This document shows, one piece after another, positions 1 to 24,347 of a stretch of DNA of 29,114 nt. Within the stretch, counting starts at the first letter, position 1. Each line of letters starts with the position of its first letter. The position numbers were made by a program, and so were the translations under genes. The DNA comes from a virus. Lineage: Duplodnaviria; Heunggongvirae; Uroviricota; Caudoviricetes. The stretch lies in the IMG/VR virus record IMGVR_UViG_2526164597_000011; one strand, given 5' to 3'. The notes beneath the pieces are model-generated. The model made no database searches. It was not told the origin of the DNA and saw nothing but the letters and a program-made list of their open reading frames with translations.

Positions 1-324
1 TCAGACATTGAGTTTTACCGGCACTTCTTCTGCACTGGTTCCGGCATCTGCCCATACAACCCCGACCAGCGGATCAGAGCCGCTGTTAGTCAGCTGAACT
101 TTTCCGGACTTCAGATAAACCTTCTTACCCGTTTTCATGTCATCCGTTTTCAGCTTAGGCAGCATAAACACACCTTCGGTTATGCCGTCGCCTGTTTCTC
201 CCTGTGGAATATCGGTCAGCGCCACCGCAAAAACATCACCCACCTGCACCAGATCTCCGCTGCTGATGGCTGCACTGGCAACAATCGCCACCGTTTTTCC
301 TTCTTCTACAAAATTCTTTGCCAT
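1..324 (-). CDS. Small phage head-region protein (possible decoration/DUF2190-like structural protein)
   Basis: Complete ORF with stop at 1-3, immediately downstream of the protease-capsid gene on the same strand. ATG at 324 is preceded by GGAGACAG RBS; the track ORF extends to a TTG at 369. Gly/Val/Thr-rich 107-aa product. Function inferred from position only. Confidence 0.4.
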   Translation of the reverse strand: MAKNFVEEGKTVAIVASAAISSGDLVQVGDVFAVALTDIPQGETGDGITEGVFMLPKLKTDDMKTGKKVYLKSGKVQLTNSGSDPLVGVVWADAGTSAEEVPVKLNV

Positions 325-365
325 AACTGTCTCCGCACAGCCCCGTTCAGGGGCTGATTTCAGGT

Positions 366-388
366 ACAAAAAAAGCCCTTACGGGCCA
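366..388 (-). terminator. Putative rho-independent terminator after the capsid gene
   Basis: Minus-strand hairpin GCCCGTAAGGGC followed by a T7 run (plus strand aaaaaaagcccttacgggc, about 368-386), just 3' of the capsid stop at 411. Confidence 0.35.
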
Positions 389-410
389 TCAGAGTTGTTG
401 TCTGCGACGT

Positions 411-2369
411 TTACGCCGTACATTTCACCAGACCGCGGTGATCAACTGGCGCGACACCGGCGTCAATACGCACTTTCGTTGTCACGCCATCCACACTGAA
501 GCCCTCCATCTGATCAATATATGGCGTATCCACACCGTTGAGATAAGCCACTTCAATCGTATCGGAGCCTTTTGACGCAGCCAGGTAGAAGGTGGTCTGG
601 CTGTTATCATCAAGACGAGGCTCTGCAATAACGGTCGCAAAATCTTTCACCGGGTTAATAATACCGGCGTTAATGTCAGCCCCCTTGACACTTGAGGAGC
701 GAATGACCTGGTTAGCAACAGACTCCATCGCCGTCGGTACCAGTACGAACGCAGGACGAATATTCAGATGACGCTCACCCTCTTTCTGAACGCGCATCAA
801 CTGGCGGGCTTTATCCAGCGATGCCACGTCCATTGCCGCGCTCTCCAGTACGTTTGCATGTTTCGCTTTATCGAACAGACTTACATTATCTGTGGAGATT
901 TTCGGGTTAGACGTCAGAATGGCATAAACCAGATCGGCAATAGTGGATTTCGCCGCACGGCCCAGCTTCATCGGGACATCGGTCAGCATATTCAGATCAT
1001 CATTGATAATGGCCTGACGGGTGATACTGAACAGCTCGCCATAGGTCGCCAGTGCAATAGTGGCCTGTTTATCTCCGGTGGTGACGTATTTATATTCCGC
1101 CCCTTCACGCACCTGACGCAGAGCACTGAAGCCCCCCATACCCACACGATGGGCAATTTTAAAATCAGACAACTGACCTTTCCGCGTCCACTGTTCATAG
1201 GTTTCAGGGGCATCTTCCCAGCCCTGCAGAATGGCTTTGTTCGCAACATCCAGCAGAATATTACCGAAGTCAGACGTACTGTGTGTGAACGCCGCACCGA
1301 CCATCTGCATCGGGTTATAACTGGAAACACCAATACCACGTTCAGTCAGTGACATACGGGCATATTCACGCAGGGTCATCCCGTTGTAGACATTATCACG
1401 TTCGGTTTTTTCAAATCCGGCACGCGCCATCAGCGCCTGGCGGATCCCGTCCCCCACAAAATTACCGTTACCGGCATAAATATGAGCCGGGGTATTTTTA
1501 TTGGATGGCGTGGACTCGCGCCCCATCTCGTTCAACAGCTTTTCGCGGGCCTGCTCCAGCGAACATTCAGGATCGGCAAGACACTGAGCCTGCAGCGTCT
1601 GATAACGCCCGCCAAACATGGCAAACAGATCATTAATACCGTTTACACGCGCTTTTTGCTCTGCCAGTACCTGCGCACGGATGCTGTTTTCATCCACCAC
1701 GGGTGCTGCTGCCTGCACTGGCGTCCGGGAGGCTGCAGGTCCATCATCCTGTACGCGTGGAGCACTGTTGCGTGGCGGAGTAATCATATTTCGAATGGAT
1801 TCCGGCATCTTTTTAAATTCCTCTGTACGTTTTGACTGAATACATGCCATTGCCTTAACGGCTGGTGTCACCTGATCAGCAAATCCATGTGCCAGACATT
1901 CGGCACCGGACATCCAGGTCTCATCCGCCAGCATGGCAGCAATTTCATCGGTGGTTTTCCCGGTTTTCTGTGCATAAGCGGGTAACAGAACCGCCTCAAC
2001 TTTATCGAGCAGGTCGGCATAGGTGCGCATGTCCTCCGCATCACCGCCCGTAAAGCCAAATGGTTTATGAATCATCATGAAGGAGTTTTCCGGCATAATG
2101 ACCGGGTTTCCCACCATCGCAATGACCGACGCCATTGACGCCGCCACACCGTCGACATAAACGGTAATGGACGCACCATGTGTTTTCAGTGCATTAAAAA
2201 TGGCGATGCCTTCAAAGACATCGCCACCCGGTGAATTGATATGGAGATTAATGTGGGTGATATCGCCCAGTGCATTCAGATCACTGATAAACTGCTTCGC
2301 TGTAACACCCCAGAAACCAATCTCGTCATAAATATAAATATCCGCGTCACTCTGGTGACCAGCCTGCAT
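411..2369 (-). CDS. Prohead protease (ClpP/S14-like) fused to major capsid protein (HK97-fold, Mu gpT-like)
   Basis: The N-terminal half has ClpP-like motifs (DADIYIYDEIG, INSPGGDVFEG, SMASVIAMVG). The C-terminal ~300 aa resemble a Mu-gpT/HK97-type major head subunit. The track ORF runs to a TTG at 2630 but overlaps the portal; the ATG at 2369 (MQAGHQSDADIYIY) is the likely start. Confidence 0.8.
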   Translation of the reverse strand: MQAGHQSDADIYIYDEIGFWGVTAKQFISDLNALGDITHINLHINSPGGDVFEGIAIFNALKTHGASITVYVDGVAASMASVIAMVGNPVIMPENSFMMIHKPFGFTGGDAEDMRTYADLLDKVEAVLLPAYAQKTGKTTDEIAAMLADETWMSGAECLAHGFADQVTPAVKAMACIQSKRTEEFKKMPESIRNMITPPRNSAPRVQDDGPAASRTPVQAAAPVVDENSIRAQVLAEQKARVNGINDLFAMFGGRYQTLQAQCLADPECSLEQAREKLLNEMGRESTPSNKNTPAHIYAGNGNFVGDGIRQALMARAGFEKTERDNVYNGMTLREYARMSLTERGIGVSSYNPMQMVGAAFTHSTSDFGNILLDVANKAILQGWEDAPETYEQWTRKGQLSDFKIAHRVGMGGFSALRQVREGAEYKYVTTGDKQATIALATYGELFSITRQAIINDDLNMLTDVPMKLGRAAKSTIADLVYAILTSNPKISTDNVSLFDKAKHANVLESAAMDVASLDKARQLMRVQKEGERHLNIRPAFVLVPTAMESVANQVIRSSSVKGADINAGIINPVKDFATVIAEPRLDDNSQTTFYLAASKGSDTIEVAYLNGVDTPYIDQMEGFSVDGVTTKVRIDAGVAPVDHRGLVKCTA

Positions 2370-2382
2370 CCTGAACCAGGAA

Positions 2383-3645
2383 TTATTCTTCGGACTGGTC
2401 GTCGGTGTACTGCGGCTCCTGTCGTTTCGTTGCGGCACTGCTGCCTCCTTTATCACTGGCCGGATCGGTATCAAATACCAGGTCCAGCTTGCGGTTTTCA
2501 TCAATTTCGGCCTTGCGCCGACGTTTGACATCATCTGGATTACGACCACCTGCACGTACCCAGTCTGATTCTGTCGCCGCTCCACCACGAATCTGAATTT
2601 TCCAGGCCTCAGCCTCCTTAACAGGGTCAATCCACGGCATCACCGGTCCGGAATACACCGCGGTATACAGTGAAGATCGGTCCAGATCGCGGGGTAGCCT
2701 GATAACACCGGATACCACAGCCTGTTTCAGCCAGGCACGATACATCGGACGGGTGACGGCACCAATAAACCAGTCCTGCAGGATCAGGTAGCCATCAGTG
2801 GATTCAACCAGCTCCTGACGCTGGGCGCTGTAAGTGCCGTTATAGTTGCGCGCTGTACTGGAAAAACTCAGACGACTGCCCGCCGCCACGGCACGCAACT
2901 GACCATTACGAAAAGTTTCAAGGTTAGGATTGGGGCGATCCGACTTCACCATTCCGATTTCTTCGCCGGGTTTCAGATCGTCGTAAATAATGCCTGGCTG
3001 AATGGTAAGCTCGCGTTCCTTATCCTTGCTGCCATTACCATCCGGTTCATAGCTCTGCCCGTCGCCTTTGCGGATGTACATCCCCAGAGCAGCGGCGATC
3101 CTTGCTGCAGTCAGCTCAGAATCTTCATACTCTTTCAGGGCACTGAGGCGGATCAGCACACCGGACAACAAAGACGTCCCGCGCATCTGGTGCAGACGGC
3201 GAACAAATTTAAGATGCAGCATTCGCTCTGCATCCACTTCTTTGGTTTCCATCTGCCGTCCGGATACGGGACGGCTTTTATACACCAGATATTTTTCGGG
3301 ACGCCCCCAGTCATCAACAAACACGCCCTGATTCAGCCTGTTGCTCTCATCACTGGTCATGGGAATAAAGTCCGGCTCGAGCGCCTCCAGCCAGAAATGA
3401 ACACCGGCAGAAGGCGTCAGGCTGTTTATGCGCCCGGAAACCATCTGGGCAAACACCTCACCATCGCGCAGCCAGGTACGCAGCATCAGACGCTCCAGCA
3501 TCGGACGGGTAAACTGCCCGGTGACTTCCGGGCTGACAGACCATTCACTCCATCGGGTGCGAATCTCCGCAGCCAGGTCACGGGCAATGGCCCCATTGCG
3601 TAATACCGGATGTGGCTCGACAATAATCCCGTTTTTCCCCACCAC
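2383..3645 (-). CDS. Phage portal protein (main C-terminal reading frame)
   Basis: 420-aa ORF between gpW and the protease-capsid gene, the canonical portal position in the lambda order A-W-B-C. Its only start is a GTG at 3645, and the frame stays open upstream to a stop at 3712-3714. Confidence 0.7.
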   Translation of the reverse strand: MVGKNGIIVEPHPVLRNGAIARDLAAEIRTRWSEWSVSPEVTGQFTRPMLERLMLRTWLRDGEVFAQMVSGRINSLTPSAGVHFWLEALEPDFIPMTSDESNRLNQGVFVDDWGRPEKYLVYKSRPVSGRQMETKEVDAERMLHLKFVRRLHQMRGTSLLSGVLIRLSALKEYEDSELTAARIAAALGMYIRKGDGQSYEPDGNGSKDKERELTIQPGIIYDDLKPGEEIGMVKSDRPNPNLETFRNGQLRAVAAGSRLSFSSTARNYNGTYSAQRQELVESTDGYLILQDWFIGAVTRPMYRAWLKQAVVSGVIRLPRDLDRSSLYTAVYSGPVMPWIDPVKEAEAWKIQIRGGAATESDWVRAGGRNPDDVKRRRKAEIDENRKLDLVFDTDPASDKGGSSAATKRQEPQYTDDQSEE

Positions 3646-3697
3646 CCGTTCTTCCAGCTTGTCAAATACACCAATGACCAGATCGTGGTTGTTATCA

Positions 3698-3892
3698 AGG
3701 TACGAGCCTGCTCACGTAACGACACGGCCCCCGTACTGGCTTAAACTGGTCGGCAGTTCGGTTCTCCCGTCGGGCTTTGTGTGTCCGCGTCGTTTTTACG
3801 GCCTCATAAGCCTGGATCACCGCACGGGAACGCAGCCTTGCCGCTTTCCATCCTGGTGAAAAAACGCCAATCACATCATCAAGAATTGCCAT
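3698..3892 (-). pseudogene. Probable N-terminal segment of the portal gene, in a different frame from the main portal ORF (frame break near 3698-3714)
   Basis: ATG at 3890-3892 overlaps the gpW stop (TGATG coupling) and opens a 65-codon frame (MAILDDVIGVFSPGW...) ending at a TGA at 3695-3697. The main portal frame is open from 3711 downward. The two open frames overlap by only ~14 nt, the pattern expected from a single indel. Confidence 0.4.
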
Positions 3893-4110
3893 CAGAACCT
3901 CGCCAGCCGGTACCCGGGATGCCCCCGTCGTCGTGTAATCAGAGCCGCAAGGCGGCGCTCCCACTCCTGCCGCCCCTGCCGGATCTCAGATAAGTTTTCC
4001 ATGGTCATCTGCTGACCATTAAAAGTGACGGATTTTCCGTCCAGCACCGCCATTTCAGCTTCCGTATAACGCTGAATCATGGCTTCAATATCATTCTGAT
4101 TCATAACCAT
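3892..4110 (-). CDS. Head-tail joining protein, lambda gpW-like
   Basis: 72-aa ORF between terminase large subunit and portal. C-terminus ITRRRGHPGYRLARF resembles the lambda W C-terminus (QRRRGPAGFYV, recalled from memory). ATG at 4108-4110. Confidence 0.6.
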   Translation of the reverse strand: MVMNQNDIEAMIQRYTEAEMAVLDGKSVTFNGQQMTMENLSEIRQGRQEWERRLAALITRRRGHPGYRLARF

Positions 4111-4168
4111 CCTCCGGAAGTCAGCCAGGGGTTAACATCGTCAGTTACTGTTTTCTTCCGTTTTGTTT

Positions 4169-6202
4169 TTAACTAGGCGTGGGTACCGGTTCCGGTGAGG
4201 GTGACGGTTCGGTACTGTCCGGGACACACTCCAGCCAGGTTTCCCGGCTCGCCCACTCCAGTGCATCCGGCCAGCGGATCTTTTCGTATCCATGCAGAAT
4301 GACCAGAGCCTCGGCATACACCATCAGGTCAAAAGCTTCGTTGGCACCGCGACCCGGCTTACTCCATTTCCCGTCACTGCTCCGCTCTTCATACGTCAGT
4401 TCGTCGTAAAACCAGCTCCCCAGCCAGTCAGGGAAATGCACATAGCCGGGACCTAGCGAGTCACGCCATAACGCGTTATTCACCCGGTCTTTCAGGGCAT
4501 CCGTCTGAAGAAGCCAGAGCGGCACATCACCTGCGGCCTGCGCCCGTCGGCCCGTTCGTCCGGTGTTATCAGGGAATGTACGGGTGATCAGTTTTGCTCG
4601 CCGGATGCTGTCGCCCTTAAACAGGTAAATACGTTTACCAAGGCCATCACGACGGCAACGACGCCAGAATTTATAGGCATTATCAGTGACCCCGTCTTCA
4701 CCGCCGGAGTCCACCGCCATTGCCATCAGTCGCATTTGTTGAGAAGGGTCGGAGGCCAGCGGCCAGCTTTTATGAAAAACATCCGTCAGCAGGACATCCC
4801 AGTCTTCCGGATAGCTGGCCGGATCAATTCGCTGGCTCTCCCCGTCGCTGTCACCGCGCAATGACTGCGTGATGTTGTAACGATCAATAATCCAGCGTTC
4901 GCCACGGCTGCCATAGCCCGTTACCTGAACCACAAAACGGCGATGACGTCCCGCCTGCACATCCACTGTCGCCACAAGGAAATTAACGCCATCCGGCACA
5001 CTGCGGGAAGGAACTGGCTCTGCCCGCTGCTCAAGCAATTCACTTTTTCGTTGCTCCATGCTGGCGCGGGGAAGATAAGGTAATCCCCAGTCGGTATTGA
5101 TAACCGTCTTGAGTGTCTCTTCACTTCCGGTTGTCTCGTATTCCTGTTCTGCAGTAAGCAGTTTGTAAACGAGTTGCGAGAGTGTCTGATAAGCAGCTGC
5201 CGGACCCTCCATCCAGAATGACGCAATACGTGAACGCCGGGGATCACCATAACGACTGCCATCTGCATTGATGGATTCACCATCCCGTAACCAGACCCCA
5301 CGTCCGTTCAGCTCGCGTTTTTGTTCAGGCAAAATCCGTCCTGAACAGGAAGGACACTGAATATAAGCCGCCTCACTTGCCAGCACAGGATCGGCAATAT
5401 CACGGAAACCAGCAACCACATCGCCGCAGGGCTGAAAATACTCACCACAGTGTGGACAGGGCCAGTACCAGCGACGGCGATCGCCACGGTTATAGAGCGA
5501 CAGTATCCCCGTGGTTGGTGGAGCCTCATGCGGTGAAGTCCGTCGCCATTTCACATCCTTCACATCCCTGCCGGGGGAACTCTCCACCAGCGTCATACCA
5601 CTGGACATAAATGTGGTGGTACGTTTTGAGGCAAGAGAGAAGGCATCCCCCTCACCATCAATATCTTCCGGAAAACGGTCATAATCCGTCAGCGCCACGC
5701 ATTTATAATCTGATGAAGACATGATATTGACTGACGGCCAGCCGATTTTCAGGTAGTTGCCAGCAAGGAATGTTCTGTCATAAACGTTGTTGTCATTTTT
5801 GTTCGGACTCAGGCGACTGACCACTTCCGGGCTGACGCGAAACGTTCTGGCGAGTCGTTTTTTGGAGTGTTCGCGGGCTTTTTCCTCCGTCATCTGAATG
5901 ATCAGCATATCAGCAGGATCGCAAATCACGTTGTAAATCACCCAGCCGTCAATCAGGCCGATAGTCTTGCCGGTTCGTGCCGGGCCAACAAATATCACTG
6001 CGTCGTATTCACGCGAGGCCAGGCAGTTCATAGGCTCAATAACATACGGTGCCACCAGCGGATCCCATGGGACTGAGTTCCCTGCCCCCATGGGCACCCG
6101 CATATACTGAGCAACGGCATCAGCAACCCGCATTCGTCTCGGTGCGCGAAGGATATAACCTGAATCGGTTCGTGCTGCCTTTGCGGTTTCCTGATTCAGC
6201 AT
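4169..6202 (-). CDS. Terminase large subunit (lambda gpA family)
   Basis: 677 aa. Contains a Walker-A-like VGPARTGKT and a CPHCGEYFQPCG zinc-finger motif comparable to CPHCGEEQ in lambda gpA. The ATG at 6202 overlaps the upstream small-subunit stop (TAATG). Confidence 0.9.
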   Translation of the reverse strand: MLNQETAKAARTDSGYILRAPRRMRVADAVAQYMRVPMGAGNSVPWDPLVAPYVIEPMNCLASREYDAVIFVGPARTGKTIGLIDGWVIYNVICDPADMLIIQMTEEKAREHSKKRLARTFRVSPEVVSRLSPNKNDNNVYDRTFLAGNYLKIGWPSVNIMSSSDYKCVALTDYDRFPEDIDGEGDAFSLASKRTTTFMSSGMTLVESSPGRDVKDVKWRRTSPHEAPPTTGILSLYNRGDRRRWYWPCPHCGEYFQPCGDVVAGFRDIADPVLASEAAYIQCPSCSGRILPEQKRELNGRGVWLRDGESINADGSRYGDPRRSRIASFWMEGPAAAYQTLSQLVYKLLTAEQEYETTGSEETLKTVINTDWGLPYLPRASMEQRKSELLEQRAEPVPSRSVPDGVNFLVATVDVQAGRHRRFVVQVTGYGSRGERWIIDRYNITQSLRGDSDGESQRIDPASYPEDWDVLLTDVFHKSWPLASDPSQQMRLMAMAVDSGGEDGVTDNAYKFWRRCRRDGLGKRIYLFKGDSIRRAKLITRTFPDNTGRTGRRAQAAGDVPLWLLQTDALKDRVNNALWRDSLGPGYVHFPDWLGSWFYDELTYEERSSDGKWSKPGRGANEAFDLMVYAEALVILHGYEKIRWPDALEWASRETWLECVPDSTEPSPSPEPVPTPS

Positions 6203-6697
6203 TACTCCTCCTGCTGTAATTCCTCCTCATCATCCGCACCTGCTTCAGTCACCCGCAGGGCTACCTGATCGCGCAGATCATCAATAATGGACTGAACACG
6301 GCTCACAGCGGCAGGCTGCAGACCGCAGTCACGTTCAAGAATATCCGGTAATGTCTCCAGCACCTGCACGACCGCTTTTGCCCAGATGGCAAACTCCCGT
6401 CTGACATCACTGGCCGGAATGAGTTGTGCCGTTTCCTGTTCGAACTTAAGACGCTCACGTTCAGACTGATACCAGGCTTTGCGCTCATGTGCGTCCATTT
6501 CGCCTTCTGCAACCGGCGGTGGTAATGCCAGAAATGCCGACACAATATCAACCACCCGATAAAGCTTGAGGTTGCTTTCATGCCCCCCCTGCAACGGGTA
6601 GATTTGGCAGCCTTGCCGCAGCAGTCTGGCGATGTACACCTGACAGTGCCGCCAATTGACTGATATTCAGCGTCAGATTTTTTAACTCTCGATCCAT
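6202..6697 (-). pseudogene. Terminase small subunit (Nu1-like), frameshifted in a homopolymeric tract
   Basis: ATG at 6695-6697 opens a 39-codon frame (MDRELKNLTLNISQLAALSGVHRQTAAARLPNLPVAGGA*) that stops at 6578-6580. The rest of the protein (…GGHESNLKLYRVVD… to the stop at 6202) is in another frame. The two frames join inside a C7 run at 6583-6589 (G7 on the coding strand). Removing one G gives a continuous ~165-aa product collinear with lambda Nu1 (…PVLRGGGKGNEVLYD…). Confidence 0.7.
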
Positions 6698-6859
6698 ACC
6701 CGCTCCAGAATGTTTTAAACATGCATCTTGCGAACGACTTTAGGCAAACGGTGTTAGTGATGAACAAAAAACAATCAAAATCGACACCACAAAAATAAAA
6801 ATACTGTAATATCAATCTATTACAGTAGTGGTGATGACGGATGAAATTTCAAAAACTAG

Positions 6860-6945
6860 CCTTTTTCCGCGACGCTCCCGCCCCGTGGCAGGGACCCCCA
6901 CTGGGAGGACCCGACAGCCTGACAACCGTGACGAGCATCTGAAAC
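6860..6945. other. Candidate cos (cohesive end / terminase recognition) region
   Basis: GC-rich block (cgcgacgctcccgccccgtggcagggacccccactgggaggacccgacagcc) inside an otherwise AT-rich non-coding stretch, ~170-250 bp upstream of the Nu1-like start. This matches the lambda cosN-cosB-Nu1 layout. Positional inference only. Confidence 0.25.
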
Positions 6946-7249
6946 AGAGCGTTACATAATGGCATGGGGATAATTCAGAAGGACATCACAGCATGCCCAC
7001 ACAAATTAGTGTGAGTGTCCTGTTTCTTACTACGCGCAGGACTGACGAGCATGAGGGGAAAATACGCGAACCGAAATGCCTTATCTTCAGAAATGCAGCC
7101 GGCATCCGAACTGGACGATATTGTAAATTCACCTAAATACGAGGCATTGCTGTAGTTGAATTGCAGTACTGTATTAGCCTTACAGTGACAGAATACGATA
7201 TTGACTCTGTCACTTGTGAAATGGTCAGAATGGTTAGCAGTTATGGTGA

Positions 7250-7456
7250 TCAGTCAACCACCAGGGAATAATCCTTCGTATTCTTATCGTGCTTTACTAA
7301 CGCGGCCTCAATTGCCCTGAATGCTTCCAGAGATACTTGATGTTCTATACATGCAATTACAACATCCGGGTAACCCATCGAAATGGTGCTATTAAGCATA
7401 GTTTTTACACGAACCTGCTCCTGGGAGGGGGCATCAGTGTATTGATCTTTATGCAT
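7250..7456 (-). CDS. Hypothetical small prophage protein
   Basis: 68-aa ORF with an ATG start, isolated in an AT-rich accessory region between the cos region and gnsB. No recognisable motif. Confidence 0.35.
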
Positions 7457-7751
7457 TTTGTCGCTCCATTCGTTTGCTCTTCACTTGCGGCTAAAAATAT
7501 AACGTCAAATCACTCAGCATGAAAGAGTGAAAGTTTCAGCGCGTTTCCCTTACATAATCTGTCGTTTGTATTCTCTTCAGGCATACCGGAAAGACTAGGT
7601 ATTGTCACACAACCAATACCATCGACAATCGAGATTTATATCTATTCAGTAATGTTTAAATATAACAAAACCCCGTAAAAACGAGGTTTATGGGTAATTT
7701 GTATTGTTGAATAGCATCTGATGAGAAATTGATGCTAATACTATAAACATG

Positions 7752-7925
7752 CTAGATTAAATCAATCTTGATATCATAGCTTTCAAGACCAGTCATTTTT
7801 TCCCGTGCAGTAAACTGGATACTGGTAACTTCTTTCCCGGTCTTTTTCTTAAGCTCAATGATTTTTTTTGTTATATATTCAGAAATATCTGCTTCTGTTT
7901 TTGTTTTTAACTCTTCAATGTTCAT
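7752..7925 (-). CDS. gnsB: GnsA/GnsB family protein
   Basis: MNIEELKTKTEADISEYITKKIIELKKKTGKEVTSIQFTAREKMTGLESYDIKIDLI matches the Gns family as remembered. Two tandem ATGs at 7928/7925; the track ORF's upstream extension to 8018 is probably non-coding. Confidence 0.65.
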   Translation of the reverse strand: MNIEELKTKTEADISEYITKKIIELKKKTGKEVTSIQFTAREKMTGLESYDIKIDLI

Positions 7926-8097
7926 CATTTCCTCTTTTAGTCTGTTATGACTGTCCTGGTACACAGTAGTGTCAATTATATGGAGCAAACGTATAAAAGA
8001 TAAGATGAAACATCGCAATAATCAACATACGACGGTCTAAATTTCACACAAACAGATAAAGATGATTATCATTTATTATCAATGCATTAGAATCAAA

Positions 8098-8328
8098 TCA
8101 ATTCAAGAGTCTCATTGCTGCTTCCAGAATTTCTTCTGAAGTTACATGTCGATCCGCTGCTACATAAATGACTTTATGATCTCCGGTCAGAGATGGAAAC
8201 CCTGCAGCCATTACAGTGAGGTGTGTTGTTTCGCCATTTGGATATTCACGCATGATGGTGTTAACTCCGGTCATCACTGGCACTACCATTGCTGGTTCAG
8301 AGTTAAAAAAAACTATTATTTTTTTCAT
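8098..8328 (-). CDS. ynfN: YnfN-like small prophage protein
   Basis: MKKIIVFFNSEPAMVVPVMTGVNTIMREYPNGETTHLTV… with an ATG at 8328. Lies between gnsB and cspI, as in Qin-type prophages. Confidence 0.45.
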   Translation of the reverse strand: MKKIIVFFNSEPAMVVPVMTGVNTIMREYPNGETTHLTVMAAGFPSLTGDHKVIYVAADRHVTSEEILEAAMRLLN

Positions 8329-8372
8329 AATGTTACCGTAATATGTGAGTATCCATCGACTAGACACTAAGC

Positions 8373-8392
8373 AAAAAAGCTCCCGAAGGAGC
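8373..8392 (-). terminator. Putative rho-independent terminator downstream of the cold-shock gene
   Basis: Minus-strand hairpin GCTCC-TTCG-GGAGC followed by a T6 run (plus strand aaaaaagctcccgaaggagc). Confidence 0.35.
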
Positions 8393-8599
8393 CTTCATTT
8401 TCACTTTCTTAAATCTAACGACAGATGGCTAACATTTAAGTATTGTGAAATATTATCAAATGTAATCATCATTGATTTACAAAAGATACATTTTGCCCCG
8501 AAAGGATTTCTGTCAGAAACATCAAAAGATGATGTTCTATACTGAGAACCATGGCAACACGGGCATCTAAAGTGAATATGGTTTGTAATATTTTCTACC

Positions 8600-8812
8600 T
8601 CAAAGTGCCACTACATGAACAGCTGCAGGGCCTTTAGGTCCGTTCTCAATACCAAATTCGACTTCCTGATTCTCAGTTAACGTTTTGAAATCGTTGCTCT
8701 GAATAGCTGAGAAATGCACAAACACATCTTTGCTACCATCTTTCGGCGTGATGAAACCAAAACCTTTTTCAGGGTTAAACCATTTCACTAAACCAGTCAT
8801 TTTGTTAGACAT
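8600..8812 (-). CDS. cspI: Cold-shock protein (CspA family, CspI/CspB-like)
   Basis: [38 protein letters not shown]… carries the RNP1/RNP2 cold-shock motifs (KGFGFI, VFVHF). About 190 bp of AT-rich leader lies upstream, typical of csp genes. Confidence 0.85.
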
Positions 8813-9021
8813 CATTATTACCTTTTGAAGAAGTTAGCCCTTGGGCAGAATGGTCCGAAAAAAAATATCAGAGAGAAAAACCAACAAGGAAATCTCAAGA
8901 GGTACAAATAATAAAATTATAACAATGACTGCTTCAGATAATTTTGTAACAAACCAGAACACCATTAACGCATGATTAACCAACCATAGCAAGGATTACT
9001 TTTGTAGGTAATGACTCCAAC

Positions 9022-9525
9022 TTACTGATAGTGTTTTATGTTCAGATAATGCCCGATGACCTTGTCATGCAGCTCCACCGATTTTGAGAACGACAGTGAC
9101 TTCCGTCCCAGCCTTGCCAGATGTTGTCTCAGATTCAGATTATGTCGCTCAATGCGCTGAGTGTAACGCTTGCTGATAACGTGCAGCTTTCCCTTCAGGC
9201 GTGATTCATACAGCGGCCAGCCATCCGTCATCCATACCACGACCTCAAAGGCCGACAGCAGGCTCAGAAGACGCTCCAGTGTGGCCAGAGTGCGTTCACC
9301 GAAGACGTGCGCCACAACAGTCCTCCGTATCCTGTCATACGCGTAAAACAGCCAGCGCTGACGTGATTTAGCACCGACGTAGCCCCATTGTTCGTCCATT
9401 TCAGCGCAGACAATCACATCACTGCCCGGTTGTATGCGCGAGGTTACCGACTGCGGCCTGAGTTTTTTAAGTGACGTAAAACCGTGTTGAGGCCAACGCC
9501 CATAATGCGTGCACTGGCGCGACAT
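9022..9525 (-). CDS. insB: IS1 InsB (catalytic part of InsAB' transposase, produced by -1 frameshift)
   Basis: 167-aa ORF that overlaps insA in the -1 frame. Sequence is typical of IS1 InsB (…[42 protein letters not shown]…). Confidence 0.95.
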
Positions 9526-9719
9526 CCGACGCCATTCATGGCCATATCAATGATTTTCTGGTGCGTACCGGGCTGAGAGGCGGTGTAAGTGAACTGTAGT
9601 TGCCATGTTTTACGGCAATGAGAGCAGAGATAGCGCTGATGTCCGGCAGTGCTTTTGCCGTTACGCACCACGCCTTCAGTAGCGGAGCAGGAAGGACATC
9701 TGATGGAAATGGAAGCCAC
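9444..9719 (-). CDS. insA: IS1 InsA (DNA-binding transposition inhibitor, N-terminal part of InsAB' transposase)
   Basis: 91 aa, [40 protein letters not shown]…; Cys4 zinc finger plus HTH. The A6C slippery site (TTAAAAAACTC) lies at the insA/insB overlap. Confidence 0.95.
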
Positions 9720-9952
9720 GCAAGCACCTTAAAATCACCATCATACACTAAATCAGTAAGTTGGCAGCATTACCACTTTTGTAAAGAAAAACACACGAAT
9801 GAAACAATAGCTTTATTTATTAATAAAACGTGTCATTCTGTCTAATGACCTTTTATCTTACCCTTAAGATTTCAAGGATTTTGACTCATGGAAGAGTCCT
9901 TTTTATTTAAATTTCACATTCAGCGCTAAAAATAATCCGATTTAATATTAAT

Positions 9953-10976
<1,024 letters not shown>

Positions 10977-10980
<4 letters not shown>

Positions 10981-11288
10981 AGATATTTATGATGAGGACG
11001 CTCGTGCTTATTGGCAGGATTTTCAATCTTAAAGGAGTACTGATGCTGCAGATAAGACTCAACTTTTTCTGACAATTTTTCTGCTACTTCCAGGAAGACT
11101 TGCCGGACGCTCATTCTGGCTGCTGCCTCATAAAACTCCAGCGCAGCTCCTTCAACACGGTCCATGGCGACATCCAGGCCAAAAATTTCACCGTCAAAGC
11201 GTTCTTTGTCCTGTAAGGCTACAGTTACCGTAACTTTATTCTCAAAATTACGGACTCCTTTCACAACCAGTTCATAGTATTGAGTCAT
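10977..11288 (-). CDS. YdfR-like (DUF1327-type) protein between holin and endolysin
   Basis: 103-aa ORF tightly packed between the pinholin stop and the endolysin start (4-nt overlaps). Soluble acidic protein. Size and position match the ydfR gene of Qin-type lysis cassettes (from memory). Confidence 0.5.
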
Positions 11289-11292
11289 TGGA

Positions 11293-11508
11293 TTACTCTC
11301 CTCTCGCAGCCTTACGCCTGTCTTCTTTAATCTTGAAATAAAGATTTGTCAGGTACGTCAGCAGGCCAAATACCAGGCTACCCAGCACACCTATTGCTGC
11401 CCACTGTGAGGGCGTGACTTTATCGAGCAGCTGTAAAAACCAGTAGCCAGCACTGCCTGCGGAGGTGCCGTAGGCAATGCCTGTTGAAATTTTGTCCATG
11501 GATTTCAT
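11293..11508 (-). CDS. Class II holin (phage 21 S21-type pinholin) with dual-start motif
   Basis: [71 protein letters not shown] is near-identical to the S21 sequence as remembered. Met1-Lys-Ser-Met4 gives the antiholin/holin dual start. GGAGGTGAGG RBS upstream. Confidence 0.85.
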
Positions 11509-11610
11509 AGCCTCACCTCCGCACGGAACGGATGGCATAGTTATTATGTGTAGGCTTCCAGACACATCAATCAGAGCCTTAATTGATATATATGCTGGAG
11601 ACGATGCAAT

Positions 11611-11634
11611 ATAAAAAGCTCGCCGTAGCGAGCT
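11611..11634 (-). terminator. Putative rho-independent terminator downstream of the lipoprotein cargo genes
   Basis: Minus-strand hairpin AGCTCGC-TACG-GCGAGCT followed by TTTTTAT (plus strand ataaaaagctcgccgtagcgagct). Confidence 0.4.
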
Positions 11635-11759
11635 AATAAAATGTATTTCTCTGATATTATGTTTATTTGTATTAGCTCAGACTTGACATCACAGGTTTCG
11701 TATATAGAACATCATCAAATCTGTCAGTTTGCTATGAATGAGATATAGTAATTGAAGAG

Positions 11760-12155
11760 CTAACCTCGCATGTCAAAGCCAGATTTCTGAAAATCTCTGT
11801 AGACTTCCGGATTGTTGAAGGCCGGAAATTTGGCTTTATGAGCTGCGGACTTTATCGCTTCGCAATAGGCTTTATCACCGTTACTGGTAGATATTTTTAA
11901 CGCCGTGCCATCCTGAGAGAATTCCATATGCAACCTGCATTTTTTCCCTTTCCAGTTATGCGGCTCATCAAGTTTGGCATTAATTGCAGCTCTGATTCCC
12001 CGCGCTTGCGCCCCCCATTCATCCTGATCATCCCAGCGTCCTGAACTGCAACTACCTGTAGCAGTAGTTTTGTGGCAATCTGAAGGGTGTAAAGGTGTGC
12101 ATCCCGCAACAAAACCGACCCAAAAAGTCAACATAACGATTTTCTTTAATCCCAC
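11760..12155 (-). CDS. Lipoprotein with TolA domain-III-like C-terminal domain (paralog 2)
   Basis: Signal peptide plus lipobox (FVAGC, Thr at +2). C-terminal region KKCRLHMEFSQDGTALKISTSNGDKAYCEAIKSAAHKAKFPAFNNPEVYRDFQKSGFDM aligns with the cargo paralog at 12306-12734 and with the E. coli TolA C-terminal domain as remembered. Confidence 0.6.
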   Translation of the reverse strand: MGLKKIVMLTFWVGFVAGCTPLHPSDCHKTTATGSCSSGRWDDQDEWGAQARGIRAAINAKLDEPHNWKGKKCRLHMEFSQDGTALKISTSNGDKAYCEAIKSAAHKAKFPAFNNPEVYRDFQKSGFDMRG

Positions 12156-12305
12156 TTCTTGCTCCTCAATCCATTAAAATCTCAGCAATAGTAGTTGTTA
12201 CGTCCGCCACTGGCTCAGAGCTGACTATCCGCTAAATTTAGCTCAGTGCCGTAGTTGTGTCAGAACAAACCTAAGCCGAAACCGTTTATTACAAAACAAT
12301 AAATA

Positions 12306-12734
12306 TCAGGGTTTAAAATCCAGCACCCCATTTTGAAATACTTTATATACTTCCGGCGAAGGGGGGGCAGGTATATCAGCATTCTTTATCGCATTCATCG
12401 CTTCACGACATAAATCGAGGTCTCCACTTTCTCTTTTAACCTCCAGTAGAAGGCCATTCGGGGCCATATGCATTCTCAGTGTACACTCTTTTCCTGAATA
12501 CTTACTCGCATCCCCGAACTGTTTTTCGATGGCGCTCTTGATTTGATGGGCATACAGACGGATATCCTCACTAACATCAGAAGTACGTTCAGATGAACTC
12601 ACATACTGTGTCTCTATTGCTTTATCGGAGTAATATGATGTACGGTCATGATAATTTGTCGATACAGCATCAGTGCACCCGATAATAATCCCACTAATAA
12701 TCAACGTAAGAATTGATGCGCTACGAAAACCCAT
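12306..12734 (-). CDS. Lipoprotein with TolA domain-III-like C-terminal domain (paralog 1)
   Basis: Signal peptide plus lipobox (IIGC, Thr at +2). C-terminus QIKSAIEKQFGDASKYSGKECTLRMHMAPNGLLLEVKRESGDLDLCREAMNAIKNADIPAPPSPEVYKVFQNGVLDFKP closely parallels the TolA C-terminus (…QIKSAIESKFYDASSYAGKTCTLRIKLAPDGMLLDIKPEGGDPALCQAALAAAKLAKIPKPPSQAVYEVFKNAPLDFKP, from memory). Confidence 0.65.
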   Translation of the reverse strand: MGFRSASILTLIISGIIIGCTDAVSTNYHDRTSYYSDKAIETQYVSSSERTSDVSEDIRLYAHQIKSAIEKQFGDASKYSGKECTLRMHMAPNGLLLEVKRESGDLDLCREAMNAIKNADIPAPPSPEVYKVFQNGVLDFKP

Positions 12735-12851
12735 TTTTCCTCACATATGTCATATAGTAAAGGATTATATATACCGTTGTTTTGGACGCTCAAACAGCGA
12801 ATCAGATCAAATAAAACGCACATTTGTTAACATTTACACAAAGTCTGCGTG

Positions 12852-12872
12852 GGATATTCTGAAAGAATATCC
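12852..12872. promoter_or_regulatory. Perfect 21-bp palindrome (candidate operator) upstream of the lipoprotein cargo gene
   Basis: GGATATTCT-GAA-AGAATATCC, 9-bp arms with a 3-nt spacer, ~120 bp upstream of the lipoprotein start at 12734 in an AT-rich promoter-like region. Confidence 0.3.
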
Positions 12873-13267
12873 ATAATGTGGAGAGAATCTATTGAAGTGC
12901 ATGGTGCCGGGTGCCTCCCGGTGAATTCAGTACCAGCACCTGAATCCGCGATTATCCCATATACCTACTCGCTGATTGCCCCTCCGCACAGGGGGATTCA
13001 CCATGCCAGTTTCTTTTAACAAACTCCCCGCAAACCAGAGAACAGTCAACCGCCTGAATTGTGAAGTATTTAAAAATTTCTCCCGCTAACTGATACCCGG
13101 CTAACAGTCTGGCGTTTTCTTTTTCAGCAACGGGAAAGCAACAACCACCACACCCGCCACCAGCACACCGTCAGCCAGCACTGACATTATCCGGCTGCTG
13201 CAATGCCATTCACAAAAACAGTAAGCAATCACTTTTTACCGTAACAGGTGATAATCCAGATATGTAT

Positions 13268-13621
13268 CTACCCCAGATGAGTAATCCGAAGTTCATCCAT
13301 ACCACAGGTCCTGGCTATTCTGTTGTACTCCTGAACAAGAGCAAATAATTCTGAATTAGCAACCATGAACTCATCGCAAACCCTCTGTATAGCATCACTA
13401 TTCAGAATAATAACGTCTCTTCCCGAAAGACGATCAGGAGCACAGAACAAAACTGTCAAACGGCTGAAGGCCTTTGCTCGTGCTGCATTGACTATATCAA
13501 TACGCTGCCTAAGGATGAAACACCCCGACGCCTCATCAATATTCACTCTACCCACACCATATGAATGATAAATATTTAATGCTGAAAAAACCATTAGACC
13601 GTATAACAAACACTCAATCAA
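13268..13621 (-). CDS. Hypothetical protein (possible gene remnant) between tRNAs and lipoprotein cargo
   Basis: 117-aa ORF with no recognisable motifs, followed by ~390 bp of non-coding sequence (12880-13267) without ORFs. May be a truncated cargo gene. Confidence 0.3.
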   Translation of the reverse strand: MIECLLYGLMVFSALNIYHSYGVGRVNIDEASGCFILRQRIDIVNAARAKAFSRLTVLFCAPDRLSGRDVIILNSDAIQRVCDEFMVANSELFALVQEYNRIARTCGMDELRITHLG

Positions 13622-13731
13622 TACTTAACAGAACTTTTATTTTTGACAAACATATTATGTTTTCAACAATATCCTGAGCCAGGTATATTCCAGTATAAGG
13701 CTCTGCCGGAAGGAATCTGGAAGAATGAATA

Positions 13732-13808
13732 TGGCGCGCTGTACTGGATTCGAACCAGTGACCGATTGCTTAGAAGGCAATTGCTCTGTCCGGCTGAGCT
13801 AACAACGC
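13732..13808 (-). tRNA. tRNA-Arg (anticodon UCU), phage-borne argN/argO-like
   Basis: Minus-strand sequence GCGTTGTTAGCTCAGCCGGACAGAGCAATTGCCTTCTAAGCAATCGGTCACTGGTTCGAATCCAGTACAGCGCGCCA. 7-bp acceptor stem (one G-U pair), anticodon loop CT-TCT-AA, T-loop GGTTCGAATCC, encoded CCA end. Confidence 0.85.
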
Positions 13809-13908
13809 TGAATACCGATAATGGACCGCCATCGGGGACCCGCCCCCGCACCAACAACCCTGTTATCGTGTCGTCTGCTCTTCCTGATAAGCTAATGGCG
13901 GTTTGTGA

Positions 13909-13984
13909 TGGTGGCCCTTGCTGGATTTGAACCAGCGACCTGGCGATTATGAGTCGCTCGCTCTCACCACTGAGCTAAAGGGCC
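13909..13984 (-). tRNA. tRNA-Ile2 (anticodon CAU, lysidine-type; ileX/ileZ-like)
   Basis: Minus-strand sequence GGCCCTTTAGCTCAGTGGTGAGAGCGAGCGACTCATAATCGCCAGGTCGCTGGTTCAAATCCAGCAAGGGCCACCA, near-identical to E. coli tRNA-Ile2 as remembered. Anticodon loop CT-CAT-AA, encoded CCA end. Confidence 0.85.
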
Positions 13985-14030
13985 GGGAGCAGAATAATAA
14001 CGGTCCGTAATTAATTCCGCAATAAAAAAC

Positions 14031-14057
14031 CCGCTCGGCGGCGGGTTGTAGAAACTC
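14031..14057 (-). terminator. tR'-like rho-independent terminator downstream of the Q gene (target of Q antitermination)
   Basis: Minus-strand hairpin CCCGC-CGCCGA-GCGGG followed by TTTTTTATT, ~70-95 bp downstream of the Q stop. The interval 14058-14127 is the expected location of PR' and qut. Confidence 0.45.
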
Positions 14058-14127
14058 TTCTAACGTCAGGCATAAAAAGCCCATCATTATGACGAATTTA
14101 CCACAGATTCCGGAAAAATCAACCTTG

Positions 14128-14949
14128 TTACCTAGTTACCTTTTTTAACTGCCGCTCAGCCCATGCTTCTTCAATATCAAACCGGGTCACCAGCGCATCA
14201 TAGAATTTCTTAACTGTTTTTTCCCATGACGCGCGTGTTATCTGGTTTGTCACCTCGCATATAGCATTAAATGCCTCCGTTGATGGTAGTCTTTCATAGC
14301 CACGACCACCACAACGCTGGCAGTCTCTGACAACAGGCATACCACGTTTTACCGACTCTTCACGATGAATGGCGACACCACGCCCACGGCAATCCTTACA
14401 GGCGGTGGAAACCTCACCCTTTCCGCCACACTCCGGACAGGCAACTTTTACCACCTCCCTGACTTTTTTCCATTCTTCCCAGTAAGACGGATACACACCT
14501 TTCGTACACTTTGCCCATACCGGCGGCTTACCATCCGGATACTGGACCTTGTTTGTAAAAACTATGCTTTCAATAAATTTTTCCCCATAGCAACAAGGGC
14601 ACTGCTTTTTACTCGCTGCGCTGCGGGCATAATCCTCAAAAGCGTACGAAGCCATAATGCGCATCACTACCGGTTTTATTTCTGCCGGAAGTTTTCTCAA
14701 CGCCGCCACACGATCGCACCGACTGAGTGCATAATCTGCCAGTAATTCTGTTGCCCGCGCCCTGTCATTCATACTGATGCCCATTTTCCCCAGGAACGCA
14801 GAAAAACCCATCTCAGCCCGATTCTGTGTCATGCCCTGCGCGGCCATCACATCAGTGATACTCAGCGCATCTTTTGACGTTGAGGCCGATGCATCGGTCA
14901 GGCCAGGGGATTTTGGGGAGTAGTATTTCGGTAAATCTTCCAGTTTCAT
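14128..14949 (-). CDS. Late-gene antiterminator Q (Qin quuQ-like)
   Basis: 273-aa protein with multiple CxxC zinc-binding motifs (CPCCYGEK, CPECGGKG, CKDCRGRG, CQRCGGRG). Located just upstream of tR', the tRNAs and the lysis cassette. Confidence 0.8.
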   Translation of the reverse strand: MKLEDLPKYYSPKSPGLTDASASTSKDALSITDVMAAQGMTQNRAEMGFSAFLGKMGISMNDRARATELLADYALSRCDRVAALRKLPAEIKPVVMRIMASYAFEDYARSAASKKQCPCCYGEKFIESIVFTNKVQYPDGKPPVWAKCTKGVYPSYWEEWKKVREVVKVACPECGGKGEVSTACKDCRGRGVAIHREESVKRGMPVVRDCQRCGGRGYERLPSTEAFNAICEVTNQITRASWEKTVKKFYDALVTRFDIEEAWAERQLKKVTR

Positions 14950-14963
14950 TTTTTGACCTGCTC

Positions 14964-15320
14964 TTAATGCATTATGGGGTAAATCTTCACCCCCAGACGT
15001 CCGCCAGATACTGGCTGACCACGAACGATATTGATTTCATCAAACTGCTCATCGTCCATTAACACTCCCGCATGCGTCAGCGCATCCAGCGGTGCTTTCA
15101 GGATATTGTCCAGGTCGCGACGACGCTTATCCGGTGGCTCTGCAATCACCTTTATCGCCAGCCTTCCGGACAGGCTTAATTTCAGCCGCTGCTGGCGAAC
15201 AATAAGCGCCACAGCCCGGCGATAACGCTTTCCCTCCTCCGAGATAAAATATGTGCTGCCACGGCGTCGCCAGTAAGTGTTCACCGTCGGCGGGTAAGGT
15301 AAAACCAAATCTATGAGCAT
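14964..15320 (-). CDS. rusA: Holliday-junction resolvase RusA
   Basis: 118 aa with RusA signatures (LPYPPTVNTYW, …PDKRRRDLDNILKAPLDALTHAGVLMDDEQ…), comparable to DLP12 RusA as remembered. Confidence 0.8.
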   Translation of the reverse strand: MLIDLVLPYPPTVNTYWRRRGSTYFISEEGKRYRRAVALIVRQQRLKLSLSGRLAIKVIAEPPDKRRRDLDNILKAPLDALTHAGVLMDDEQFDEINIVRGQPVSGGRLGVKIYPIMH

Positions 15321-15332
15321 CAGTCACCTCTT

Positions 15333-16421
15333 TTACCCAAGCACGCCAGTTGCAAAGGCGTGATCAAGAAAACGAAAAATTAAATCAACCTGAGAACCAT
15401 GCTTTTCTTCGAACGCCAGAGGATCCGCATGAAGCTCGTTGTGATGCTCCCGACACAGCGGTAGCGTGAAAATATCGTGAGATTTTGTCCCCATTCCGCC
15501 CTGACCATGACCAATCAGGTGATGGGGATCGTCGGCTGGCTTACCACAACACGCACACGGCTGTGTCTTCACCCAGCGTTTGTATTTCTCGTTAACCCAG
15601 CAGCGACGTTTAGGTCGTTTCATGAAAGATTCCGGAGACTCAGGATCAACGGCAATGCTGACCACCGTCTTTTCCTGTGGTGGGTTCTGTTGCTGGTGGG
15701 CGTGAGGCAGCGGCGCAAGATTTTTTGTGCGCTGTTTCAGTATGCTGGTGGCGGTCTGCTCTCCCGGTACGATGTCGCTTTCGCGGTACACCGAGCAGAT
15801 TTTTTCCGCTGGTAATCCCAGCGAACGACGCGATACAGCCTCAGGTAGTGCATCCACCACCTGATTGCAGACCGCCCACCAGGATAATTCAGCCAAAGAT
15901 AATTCCCGCTCCTGCGTACCGCTTATTGCGTGACGGATGACGTCAATCACCCATGCTGTCAGATTTTGTTGAGCAAGCAGCTCCAGTGATTCCGATGTCT
16001 GGTCACGCAGTTGGTTGTCGCAGTGCCAACACAACACCATTGCGCCGGTACCATAACGGTGAATGACTGTTTCAGTGTGATGGTAATCTCCATTAGGCCA
16101 CTGGCAGGATGTAACATGACGTAATAGCCAGTCAGACAATGCGCCAACGCCGCCAGCAGCACGAATCACCCGTTCGTTACTAAAAAACGGCAGCAATGTT
16201 TTGTCTTCCGCCAGCGGCTGGCCAACGGCAGGAACGACTCCGGATGGCAGATTACGCATGCTTTTTGGTTCCGGTTCCACCAGCACTCGAGGATTATGAA
16301 ATATCTGTATGGATTCACGGCCCGGCTTAAGGACCACCAGCCCAAGCTCAGGCACCAGAACAGGTCTAAGTAATACCCGCACGTTACCTCCAGATCCGTT
16401 GCTGGAAAGTGCGGGACGCAC
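15333..16421 (-). CDS. DUF968-family prophage protein (YdfU-like) with C-terminal HNH-like Cys/His motif
   Basis: C-terminus …RRCWVNEKYKRWVKTQPCACCGKPADDPHHLIGHGQGGMGTKSHDIFTLPLCREHHNELH… Start uncertain: track GTG/TTG at 16421, possible internal Met at 16259. Confidence 0.55.
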   Translation of the reverse strand: MRPALSSNGSGGNVRVLLRPVLVPELGLVVLKPGRESIQIFHNPRVLVEPEPKSMRNLPSGVVPAVGQPLAEDKTLLPFFSNERVIRAAGGVGALSDWLLRHVTSCQWPNGDYHHTETVIHRYGTGAMVLCWHCDNQLRDQTSESLELLAQQNLTAWVIDVIRHAISGTQERELSLAELSWWAVCNQVVDALPEAVSRRSLGLPAEKICSVYRESDIVPGEQTATSILKQRTKNLAPLPHAHQQQNPPQEKTVVSIAVDPESPESFMKRPKRRCWVNEKYKRWVKTQPCACCGKPADDPHHLIGHGQGGMGTKSHDIFTLPLCREHHNELHADPLAFEEKHGSQVDLIFRFLDHAFATGVLG

Positions 16422-16662
16422 GTGGTGGGCGTTCGGAGTAAGGCAATCTGACTGAGATTATCCAGTGACGGTAGTCGAGACTAAGGGCTTTCTTAACCTC
16501 GTATCCGCGCCTGCGGTAACACTGAATTATCCATTCAGCCTGCTCTTCAGTGCATGGAGGGTGTTGGAACCATTCAGACTTGAATGCGTGAGAATACCGC
16601 TCGTGCGTGCAGGCAAGAACGGGCGAATTATCAGAATTGTAATATTTTACGTTGCGTGCCAT
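16384..16662 (-). CDS. Hypothetical small protein (nin-region-like)
   Basis: 92-aa ORF starting with ATG, overlapping the putative 5' end of the DUF968 gene by 38 nt. No motif recognised. Confidence 0.35.
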   Translation of the reverse strand: MARNVKYYNSDNSPVLACTHERYSHAFKSEWFQHPPCTEEQAEWIIQCYRRRGYEVKKALSLDYRHWIISVRLPYSERPPRASRTFQQRIWR

Positions 16663-16728
16663 CGGTTTTCTCCGGTGGCACGGTGTTACTCAGCGGGAGT
16701 TCAGCCCCGCGCAAGATTGTAGATGAGT

Positions 16729-16980
16729 TTATTCTTCTGCAAAAGCTGAAAAGCCTGCTTTTATTCCGATCTCTTTCAGTGCCTGTAATGAAGTGACAAA
16801 CTCACCTTCGCGCAAGATAAATCCGTCTGTCACTCGACCATCCACAAAATTAATTAACGCAGCCCCATTCTTTCGCAAACACATAATGCGGTAATGACTA
16901 ACAAGATTTCCATTTTCAACGCACACCGCATAGAGGCCATCTTCACAAAAAATTTTACGCAGTTCTTCGATGTTCATCAT
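16729..16980 (-). CDS. rem: Rem-like small prophage protein
   Basis: 83 aa, MMNIEELRKIFCEDGLYAVCVENGNLVSHYRIMCLRKNGAALINF…; matches Qin rem as remembered, and sits next to hokD. Confidence 0.5.
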   Translation of the reverse strand: MMNIEELRKIFCEDGLYAVCVENGNLVSHYRIMCLRKNGAALINFVDGRVTDGFILREGEFVTSLQALKEIGIKAGFSAFAEE

Positions 16981-17107
16981 CAGAATCCTTCCGGATAATT
17001 AGCTCTCCCCTTTAAGGGACCATCCCTCTTATCCCTGCGCGCTACTTAAGTATTTTTGATTCTATTCCGGCACCGTCCAGAACTTCAAACGCGTTGAAAA
17101 TAAAAAC

Positions 17108-17130
17108 AAAAACCCGCCGAAGCGGGTTAA
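17108..17130 (-). terminator. Putative rho-independent terminator at the hokD 3' end
   Basis: Hairpin AACCCGC-TTCG-GCGGGTT followed on the minus strand by TTTTGTTTTT (plus strand aaaaacaaaaacccgccgaagcgggtt). Confidence 0.35.
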
Positions 17131-17196
17131 GTGCGGGTGCGTTGAGGATGCCTGCCACATCAGAGGTGGCGAGGGATTTCTCCCTCGCCGGGTCTC

Positions 17197-17352
17197 TTAC
17201 TCCTCAGGTTCGTAAGCTGTGAAGACAGCGACCTCCGTCTGCCCGGTTCGGATTCGTACCTCGCAGAGGTCTTTCCTCGTTACCAGTGCCGTCACTATGA
17301 CGGTTAAACAGATGACGATCAGGGCGATTAACATCGCCTTTTGCTGCTTCAT
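17197..17352 (-). CDS. hokD: Hok/Gef-family membrane toxin HokD (RelF)
   Basis: MKQQKAMLIALIVICLTVIVTALVTRKDLCEVRIRTGQTEVAVFTAYEPEE, 51 aa, matches HokD as remembered. ATG at 17350-17352; the track ORF is extended upstream in frame. Confidence 0.85.
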   Translation of the reverse strand: MKQQKAMLIALIVICLTVIVTALVTRKDLCEVRIRTGQTEVAVFTAYEPEE

Positions 17353-19445: not shown

Positions 19446-19879
19446 ATTGTGGTTTACTAAAAGCTAATAAATGATTAATGCGTTTTTCCGTATTAATCGT
19501 TTATTATCAAAGCAATTCACCACGAATCCACACCTGTACTTCCGATAGCCGATAAGCTACCGCTGAAGATCCAATTTTGATGCGCTGGTTTTTCGGGGGG
19601 ATTACTCTGGTTCTTCATCGAAGAGCGGAGTACCGGAGTTACTTATCGTCAGAGTGCTACGATTTCGCTGAATACAGAACTTCAACTTGATAAGTGCAGT
19701 TTCTTTAAGCCCCCCTGCAAACCAACCATCAACTTTTGGAGGGCTCTTGCATACCAACGTCCGCTCTTGGCACAAAGCGGACAACCACGCCAGATCTACC
19801 CTGTGCCATGAAAAATGAGAATGTCAATTCACTCCTGAACTAATGCTTTTTAATCTAGTAACGTCTAAAATACCTAACA

Positions 19880-20281: not shown

Positions 20282-20321
20282 AAGTCCCCCTTAAAATTAC
20301 CTCATGACCTGAAATCAAAAC

Positions 20322-24255: not shown

Positions 24256-24347
24256 AACAGTTCCGTAATAAACATCCGATTTCATTCTTATATGCCAGCA
24301 ATGGCAGGGATTTGTTCACCCTTAAATCTGTAATGAGGTAAAACAAA

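Follow-up and report, generated by a model that had tools for sequence, protein, structure and literature searches.

In phage lambda, the packaging genes follow cos in the order small terminase subunit (TerS, the product of nu1), gpA-type large subunit (TerL), W-like gene and portal, and the site bound by TerS, cosB, lies between cosN and nu1. In phage mEp460, which has a small terminase of the mEp460/Gifsy-2 type, TerS lies directly upstream of a gpA-type TerL and overlaps it, and the TerS gene adjoins the start of the phage record. The locus considered here follows the same plan. It lies in a 29,114-nucleotide stretch of viral DNA (IMG/VR record IMGVR_UViG_2526164597_000011; hereafter the window), which comes from a 2012 draft contig (AIHN01000044.1) of Escherichia coli DEC14D (GCA_000250475.2). 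The prophage is a Qin-site, mEp460-like lambdoid element of this strain: it occupies the Qin locus, with the flanks rspB-rspA-ynfA...ynfF, and at the terminase locus its DNA is 98 to 99% identical to that of mEp460 and mEp460_ev081. Its gene order (TerS, gpA-type TerL, W-like gene, portal and a ClpP-protease/capsid fusion gene) preserves the lambda synteny from cos to portal. As deposited, its TerS gene is broken in two at a run of seven G residues. The reading we favor, with a probability of about 70%, is that the seventh G is an error of the sequencing or assembly consensus, a cause suggested by the privacy of the indels in this region, by their clustering and by the cleanness of everything around them. 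The features on which the argument turns are the following, in window coordinates.

6698 to 6722, minus strand: short leader between the presumed cos end, where linear phage records start, and the TerS ATG
6578 to 6697, minus strand: TerS 5′ fragment, 39 codons and a stop, the predicted helix-turn-helix part; deposited as EHX92911.1, a 39-aa stub entitled [quoted passage not shown]
6606, minus strand: private change 17 nt from the G run; T4G1 becomes T3G2 on the plus strand, and CAA becomes CCA (Gln31Pro)
6583 to 6589, minus strand: homopolymer of seven G (seven C on the plus strand); the wild-type six G encode the Gly-Gly of a conserved Ala-Gly-Gly-His
6202 to 6582, minus strand: TerS 3′ part in the shifted frame, 126 codons and a stop
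4169 to 6202, minus strand: gpA-type TerL, 677 codons compared with 700 in relatives
2383 to 3892, minus strand: portal gene (502 aa in relatives), split by indels at 3745, 3732 and 3702

The initial annotation had described an ORF that begins at ATG 6697 and stops after 39 codons, with the remainder of the protein in another frame and a stop overlapping the start of TerL. This picture is correct to the base. The 5′ ORF reads MDRELKNLTLNISQLAALSGVHRQTAAARLPNLPVAGGA and ends at a TGA (6578-6580) one codon past the G run; the 3′ frame, from 6582, reads HESNLKLYRVVDIV...EELQQEE, and its TAA shares a single base (6202) with the ATG of TerL. In the source contig, the 3′ part was called as a 113-aa DUF1441 product. 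The frame change had been placed in the run of seven C at 6583-6589, which is the sole G/C run of seven or more in the TerS gene, and it does fall there, close relatives being shorter by exactly one base at that very run; the split ORF is thus not a chance pattern. Deletion of one G yields, as had been foreseen for a six-base run, a single ORF of 164 aa (...LPVAGGHESNLKLY...), and 164 aa is also the length of TerS in relatives (163 aa in a divergent allele). The gene in the window, with 39 codons followed by 126 in another frame, does not provide the one uninterrupted ORF of ~160 to 168 aa expected of a TerS gene. The private change at 6606 amounts to a shift at the boundary of two runs. No match to the repaired TerS with Pro31 exists in a collection of 15 billion proteins, and the Pro31 variant is known only in the company of the seven-G run.

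The identification of the gene as a small terminase is borne out by two profile matches and by its place directly upstream of a gpA-type TerL. The repaired ORF belongs to Pfam family DUF1441 (PF07278), which it matches with 139.1 bits against a cut-off of 35.1 (E = 1.3e-40); it matches PHROG 141, "terminase small subunit," over its full length (E = 9.7e-73); and it is 99% identical to the DUF1441 protein of strain KE48 (WP_000373430.1). The neighboring TerL matches both GpA_ATPase (E = 1.6e-71) and GpA_nuclease (E = 5.8e-85). In context, too, it is like a Nu1-type gene: a TerL of the gpA type follows it immediately, and the presumed cos adjoins it. As to similarity with Nu1 itself, pairwise BLASTP of the repaired TerS against lambda Nu1 found none (E = 18), and the Nu1 family is absent from its Pfam matches at E values up to 10. 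Reciprocal PHROG searches do link the two: the repaired protein matches phrog_57 (E = 7.5e-10), and lambda Nu1 matches phrog_141 (E = 5.6e-8). Moreover, hhalign pairs TerS residues 9-53 with Nu1 residues 2-48 (E = 0.0013, with a probability of just 18%), and MAFFT arrives at the same register, with Gly-Gly and Leu-Tyr aligned to those of Nu1. The register originally proposed (PVAGGHESNLKLY against PVLRGGGKGNEVLY) is therefore reproduced by both programs, though weakly. In an AlphaFold2 model of an intact homologue (pLDDT 78), the N-terminus is arranged as strand-helix-helix-loop-strand-helix, with Gly37-Gly38 in the loop; fold searches returned nothing significant. By its profiles, the gene is an ordinary small terminase of the DUF1441/PHROG 141 type and a remote relative of lambda Nu1. 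That it works like Nu1 is well supported by position and profile, short of strict membership in the Nu1 family.

The initial annotation had proposed a comparison with orthologous prophages to find the normal length of the run, and the answer is clear: six G is the normal, conserved state. The exact 80-mer with six G is present in 878 of the 887 complete E. coli genomes that carry this allele family, so that the gene is in frame in these and the two-ORF arrangement is not a common property of the orthologues; only 1 of the 887, strain EC4, has seven. Six G are also found in phage mEp460, in all 3 matches among GTDB species representatives and in at least 120 IMG/VR contigs, and the seven-G form has no match in IMG/VR or metagenome contigs. 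In a divergent allele (87% amino-acid identity), Ala-Gly-Gly-His is likewise encoded, there by GCT GGT GGA CAT and with no homopolymer, which argues that it is the protein motif that is conserved and not the slippery tract.

The run is not the only irregularity in this part of the window. With the near-identical intact prophages of KE48 and 20Ec-P-124 as references for indel calling, the window shows seven one-base indels, all of them in 3702-6589 (3702, 3732 and 3745; 4164, 4165 and 4174; and 6589). These and the one run-boundary shift are contained in three patches (3702-3745, 4164-4174 and 6589-6606), and they break TerS, TerL and the portal gene. In TerL, the indels at 4164, 4165 and 4174 lead to a premature TAG that removes the last 24 residues; the portal gene is left as an N-terminal piece of 65 aa (3695-3892) and an ORF of 420 aa (2383-3645). 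Outside the patches, positions 1-9006 contain no indels relative to the near-identical prophages, and 4300-6550 is ~100% identical to KE48, with a lone mismatch at 5504. Farther along, 9775-27627 (17.8 kb) is gap-free and 99.98% identical to these prophages, and core chromosome from this contig (9,147 nt) agrees in length with complete genomes and is 99.9% identical to them. Away from the patches, about 33 kb of the contig is free of indels relative to close relatives. General assembly sloppiness was rejected as an explanation because the 17.8 kb of prophage and the 9.1 kb of core chromosome show neither gaps nor differences in length.

Moreover, the changes are private. All seven indels recur when the window is compared with each of 13 diverse relatives (20 to 154 substitutions from the window), and these comparisons reveal no further indels in the TerL, portal and capsid genes. 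The six indels in the portal and TerL genes are found in none of 1,926 complete genomes (best identity 98.9%), and the 81-mer of the window at the G run has no match in complete genomes. Among 153 billion gene positions, the 39-aa stub with Pro31 and the 677-aa TerL are on one contig only. A rare natural allele bearing the indel patches was considered and rejected, as no complete genome has them and their products come from that single contig. The distribution is also far from even, the probability of such clustering being ~6e-4 within the 2.9-kb span and ~5e-6 within 9 kb. Between 3600 and 9006, the window differs from KE48 by the seven indels and three substitutions (4260, 5504 and 6606), far from the ratio expected of neutral decay. 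Finally, the spectrum of the indels includes changes in short runs (A2 to A1, A2 to A3, C4 to C5), together with a stray T located 4 nt beyond two undercalled runs, T5 and T6, and the four A8/T8 runs of the window are unchanged. Replication slippage does not fit clustered indels that hit short runs and leave the A8/T8 runs untouched; a local stretch of low-quality consensus does. The window thus has what one would look for in an artifact, namely clustered one-base indels that are private to one assembly, in otherwise identical sequence.

Several other features of the prophage were noted. A complete IS1, which KE48 and 20Ec-P-124 lack, occupies 9007-9774 on the minus strand (insA 9444-9719, insB 9022-9525). 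It separates the DUF2514 lysis gene from cspI and has a target duplication of 9 bp (ACTTTTGTA). The integrase ORF (ATG at 27178) ends at 28383, giving 401 aa compared with 426 aa in KE48, and it is shortened because a second IS1 follows (insA 28417-28692, insB 28611-29114). Just beyond this second IS1, the contig has a 39-aa ORF that is possibly the displaced integrase C-terminus. A mosaic boundary is apparent at ~3577-3700: positions 1-3577 have 38 substitutions but no indels relative to KE48, and the window to the right of it is almost identical to KE48, the first indel patch (3702-3745) being directly beside the boundary. Downstream of the antiterminator gene, at 13732-13984, are two prophage tRNA genes. 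According to ARAGORN they are tRNA-Arg(tct) and tRNA-Met(cat), the latter being tRNA-Ile in the RefSeq annotation of KE48. On the plus strand, 18096-19445 holds a 449-aa ORF between the DUF977 gene and hokD, on the strand opposite to its neighbors. It has no Pfam match and is kept in KE48 as a hypothetical protein; it could be a cargo gene.

The seven-G run does occur in other strains. The consensus 39-aa stub is found on 36 contigs (39 index blocks) from NCBI, Logan and ENA, compared with 713 contigs for one intact TerS sequence alone. Among the genes compared, seven G are present on at least eight masked TerS haplotypes, six of which have identical twins with six G. In EC4 and five other seven-G assemblies, the G run is the lone indel across ~2.2 to 6.6 kb, despite 5 to 118 substitutions, and in carriers elsewhere the packaging module is usually otherwise intact. 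Some further assemblies, ERR11040747 among them, have other homopolymer indels and were set aside as unreliable; only the lone-indel assemblies were relied on. Real slippage from six G to seven is evidently a repeated event in this TerS gene. A third state of the tract (an A lost, five G) was seen at position 2261 of ERR11040747, on the haplotype of a seven-G lineage. It occurs only there, in an assembly with other homopolymer indels, and is probably platform noise.

The initial annotation had offered two explanations, a real slippage mutation and a homopolymer sequencing error, and these are the right two. If the seventh G is an error, the natural DEC14D gene would have six G, and the seventh would be a homopolymer-length miscall in the AIHN01000044.1 consensus, part of three short low-quality patches that account for the seven one-base indels and the run-boundary shift; the TerS, TerL and portal genes of the real strain would be intact and the apparent packaging defect an artifact. 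Drafts of the DEC collection presumably belong to the pyrosequencing era. The paper that describes them, Hazen et al. 2012, is cited in PMC6256406. Independent real mutations would not be expected to cluster in this way, and slippage should favor the longest runs, both of which favor an error. Against this, the error patches would have to be confined to one 2.9-kb stretch; an isolated seven-G run in assemblies otherwise free of indels means that the run does slip in nature; and the two real IS1 lesions raise the possibility that the prophage is decaying and that frameshifts in it are tolerated. Genuine replication slippage in DEC14D, with the other six indels being either errors or also real, is a serious but doubtful alternative. 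It draws on the same seven-G run elsewhere, on 36 contigs and at least eight haplotypes and as the lone indel of clean assemblies, on the EC4 copy that RefSeq flags as frameshifted within an otherwise intact prophage, and on the IS1-truncated integrase and the second IS1, given which selection on the phage genes may be relaxed. On this reading, which we think unlikely, TerS would be cut after its predicted helix-turn-helix, with loss of cos recognition and of packaging. Yet in every other clean carrier the frameshift is isolated; DEC14D alone combines it with a private neighbor, the boundary shift 17 nt away that is seen nowhere else, and with two more patches of private indels. Moreover, the seven-G form is rare, as the single case among the 887 complete genomes shows. 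Within the genuine-mutation reading, a still smaller part belongs to the notion that the whole TerS/TerL/portal module of a locked-in prophage is decaying and that all seven indels are real; they might have been selected since cos cleavage in situ is harmful, or have come from error-prone repair near cos. The integrase truncated by IS1 would suit this, as would the fact that all private changes lie within ~4.3 kb of the presumed cos end and to its TerS side. It is nonetheless very unlikely: it is very improbable that three indels within 11 nt and another three within 44 nt arose separately, the seven indels in 3600-9006 are accompanied by just three substitutions, indels are absent and private changes nearly so from the other ~24 kb of prophage that could be aligned, and for selection a single inactivating hit would be enough.

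Two further ideas give the run itself a role. The first makes it a site of functional recoding, by +1 ribosomal slippage on GGG-GGG-G, or a contingency locus for phase variation of packaging. The repeated origin of the seven-G form speaks for either, and in principle a tRNA-Gly could re-pair in the +1 frame on the run and restore AGGH. Programmed frameshifting was rejected, as six in-frame G are conserved almost throughout the complete genomes, orthologues having no two-ORF arrangement in common, and as the divergent allele encodes the motif with no slippery tract at all. For phase variation, a frequency of ~0.1% in complete genomes, and of at most a few percent elsewhere, is in keeping with mutation and drift acting on a silent prophage gene. 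This idea is extremely improbable. Hardly better are the prospects of the other, in which the six-G run would be a recurrent, reversible slippage point and a de facto on/off switch for packaging in the course of prophage domestication, having disabled packaging time and again in prophages that are otherwise intact (the seven-G form having at least eight independent origins), with DEC14D as a real example; we rate it highly unlikely. The six further indels, the draft source and the seven-G runs elsewhere together favor a consensus error for the window, with a smaller probability left to a real mutation.

Whether error or mutation, the feature is an ordinary one, of a kind already known. If it is an error, the DEC14D draft mis-annotates three intact genes (TerS, TerL and portal) as fragments, and counts of "defective prophages" taken from such drafts would be inflated. 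If it is real, it is another instance of a prophage gene frameshifted at a homopolymer, the type of lesion that NCBI annotation has already flagged in EC4. A small practical gain is that, with independent changes from six G to seven in many E. coli lineages, the run is a handy marker of silent prophage inactivation.

Measured against the known systems, the window is closest to mEp460, from which it differs at this site in the extra G and in Gln31Pro, the six-G run of mEp460 being intact. The linear records of mEp460, mEp460_ev081 and Ayreon all begin at a point corresponding to window position ~6722, 25 nt upstream of the TerS ATG, and we presume from these record starts that this is the physical cos end. 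The mEp460 record (JQ182728, 1-60) annotates TerS from nucleotide 1; compared with E. coli prophages, it has ACG for the ATG start and A5 for A6, which fuses the upstream frame, possibly through an error in the record or as a real variant. Lambda is unlike these phages in the distance from record start to TerS ATG, which is 190 nt, compared with only 25 nt in records of the mEp460 type. With a leader of 25 nt, a lambda-like cosB between cosN and TerS would not fit here and must lie elsewhere. The nearest parallel to the lesion itself is the DUF1441 pseudogene of EC4 (NZ_CP060974, H9192_RS18220), which has the same change from six G to seven and is marked "frameshifted" by NCBI/RefSeq. In EC4, the frameshift is the lone defect of an otherwise intact 30-kb prophage region, whereas in the window it is accompanied by six more private indels and a neighboring private change.
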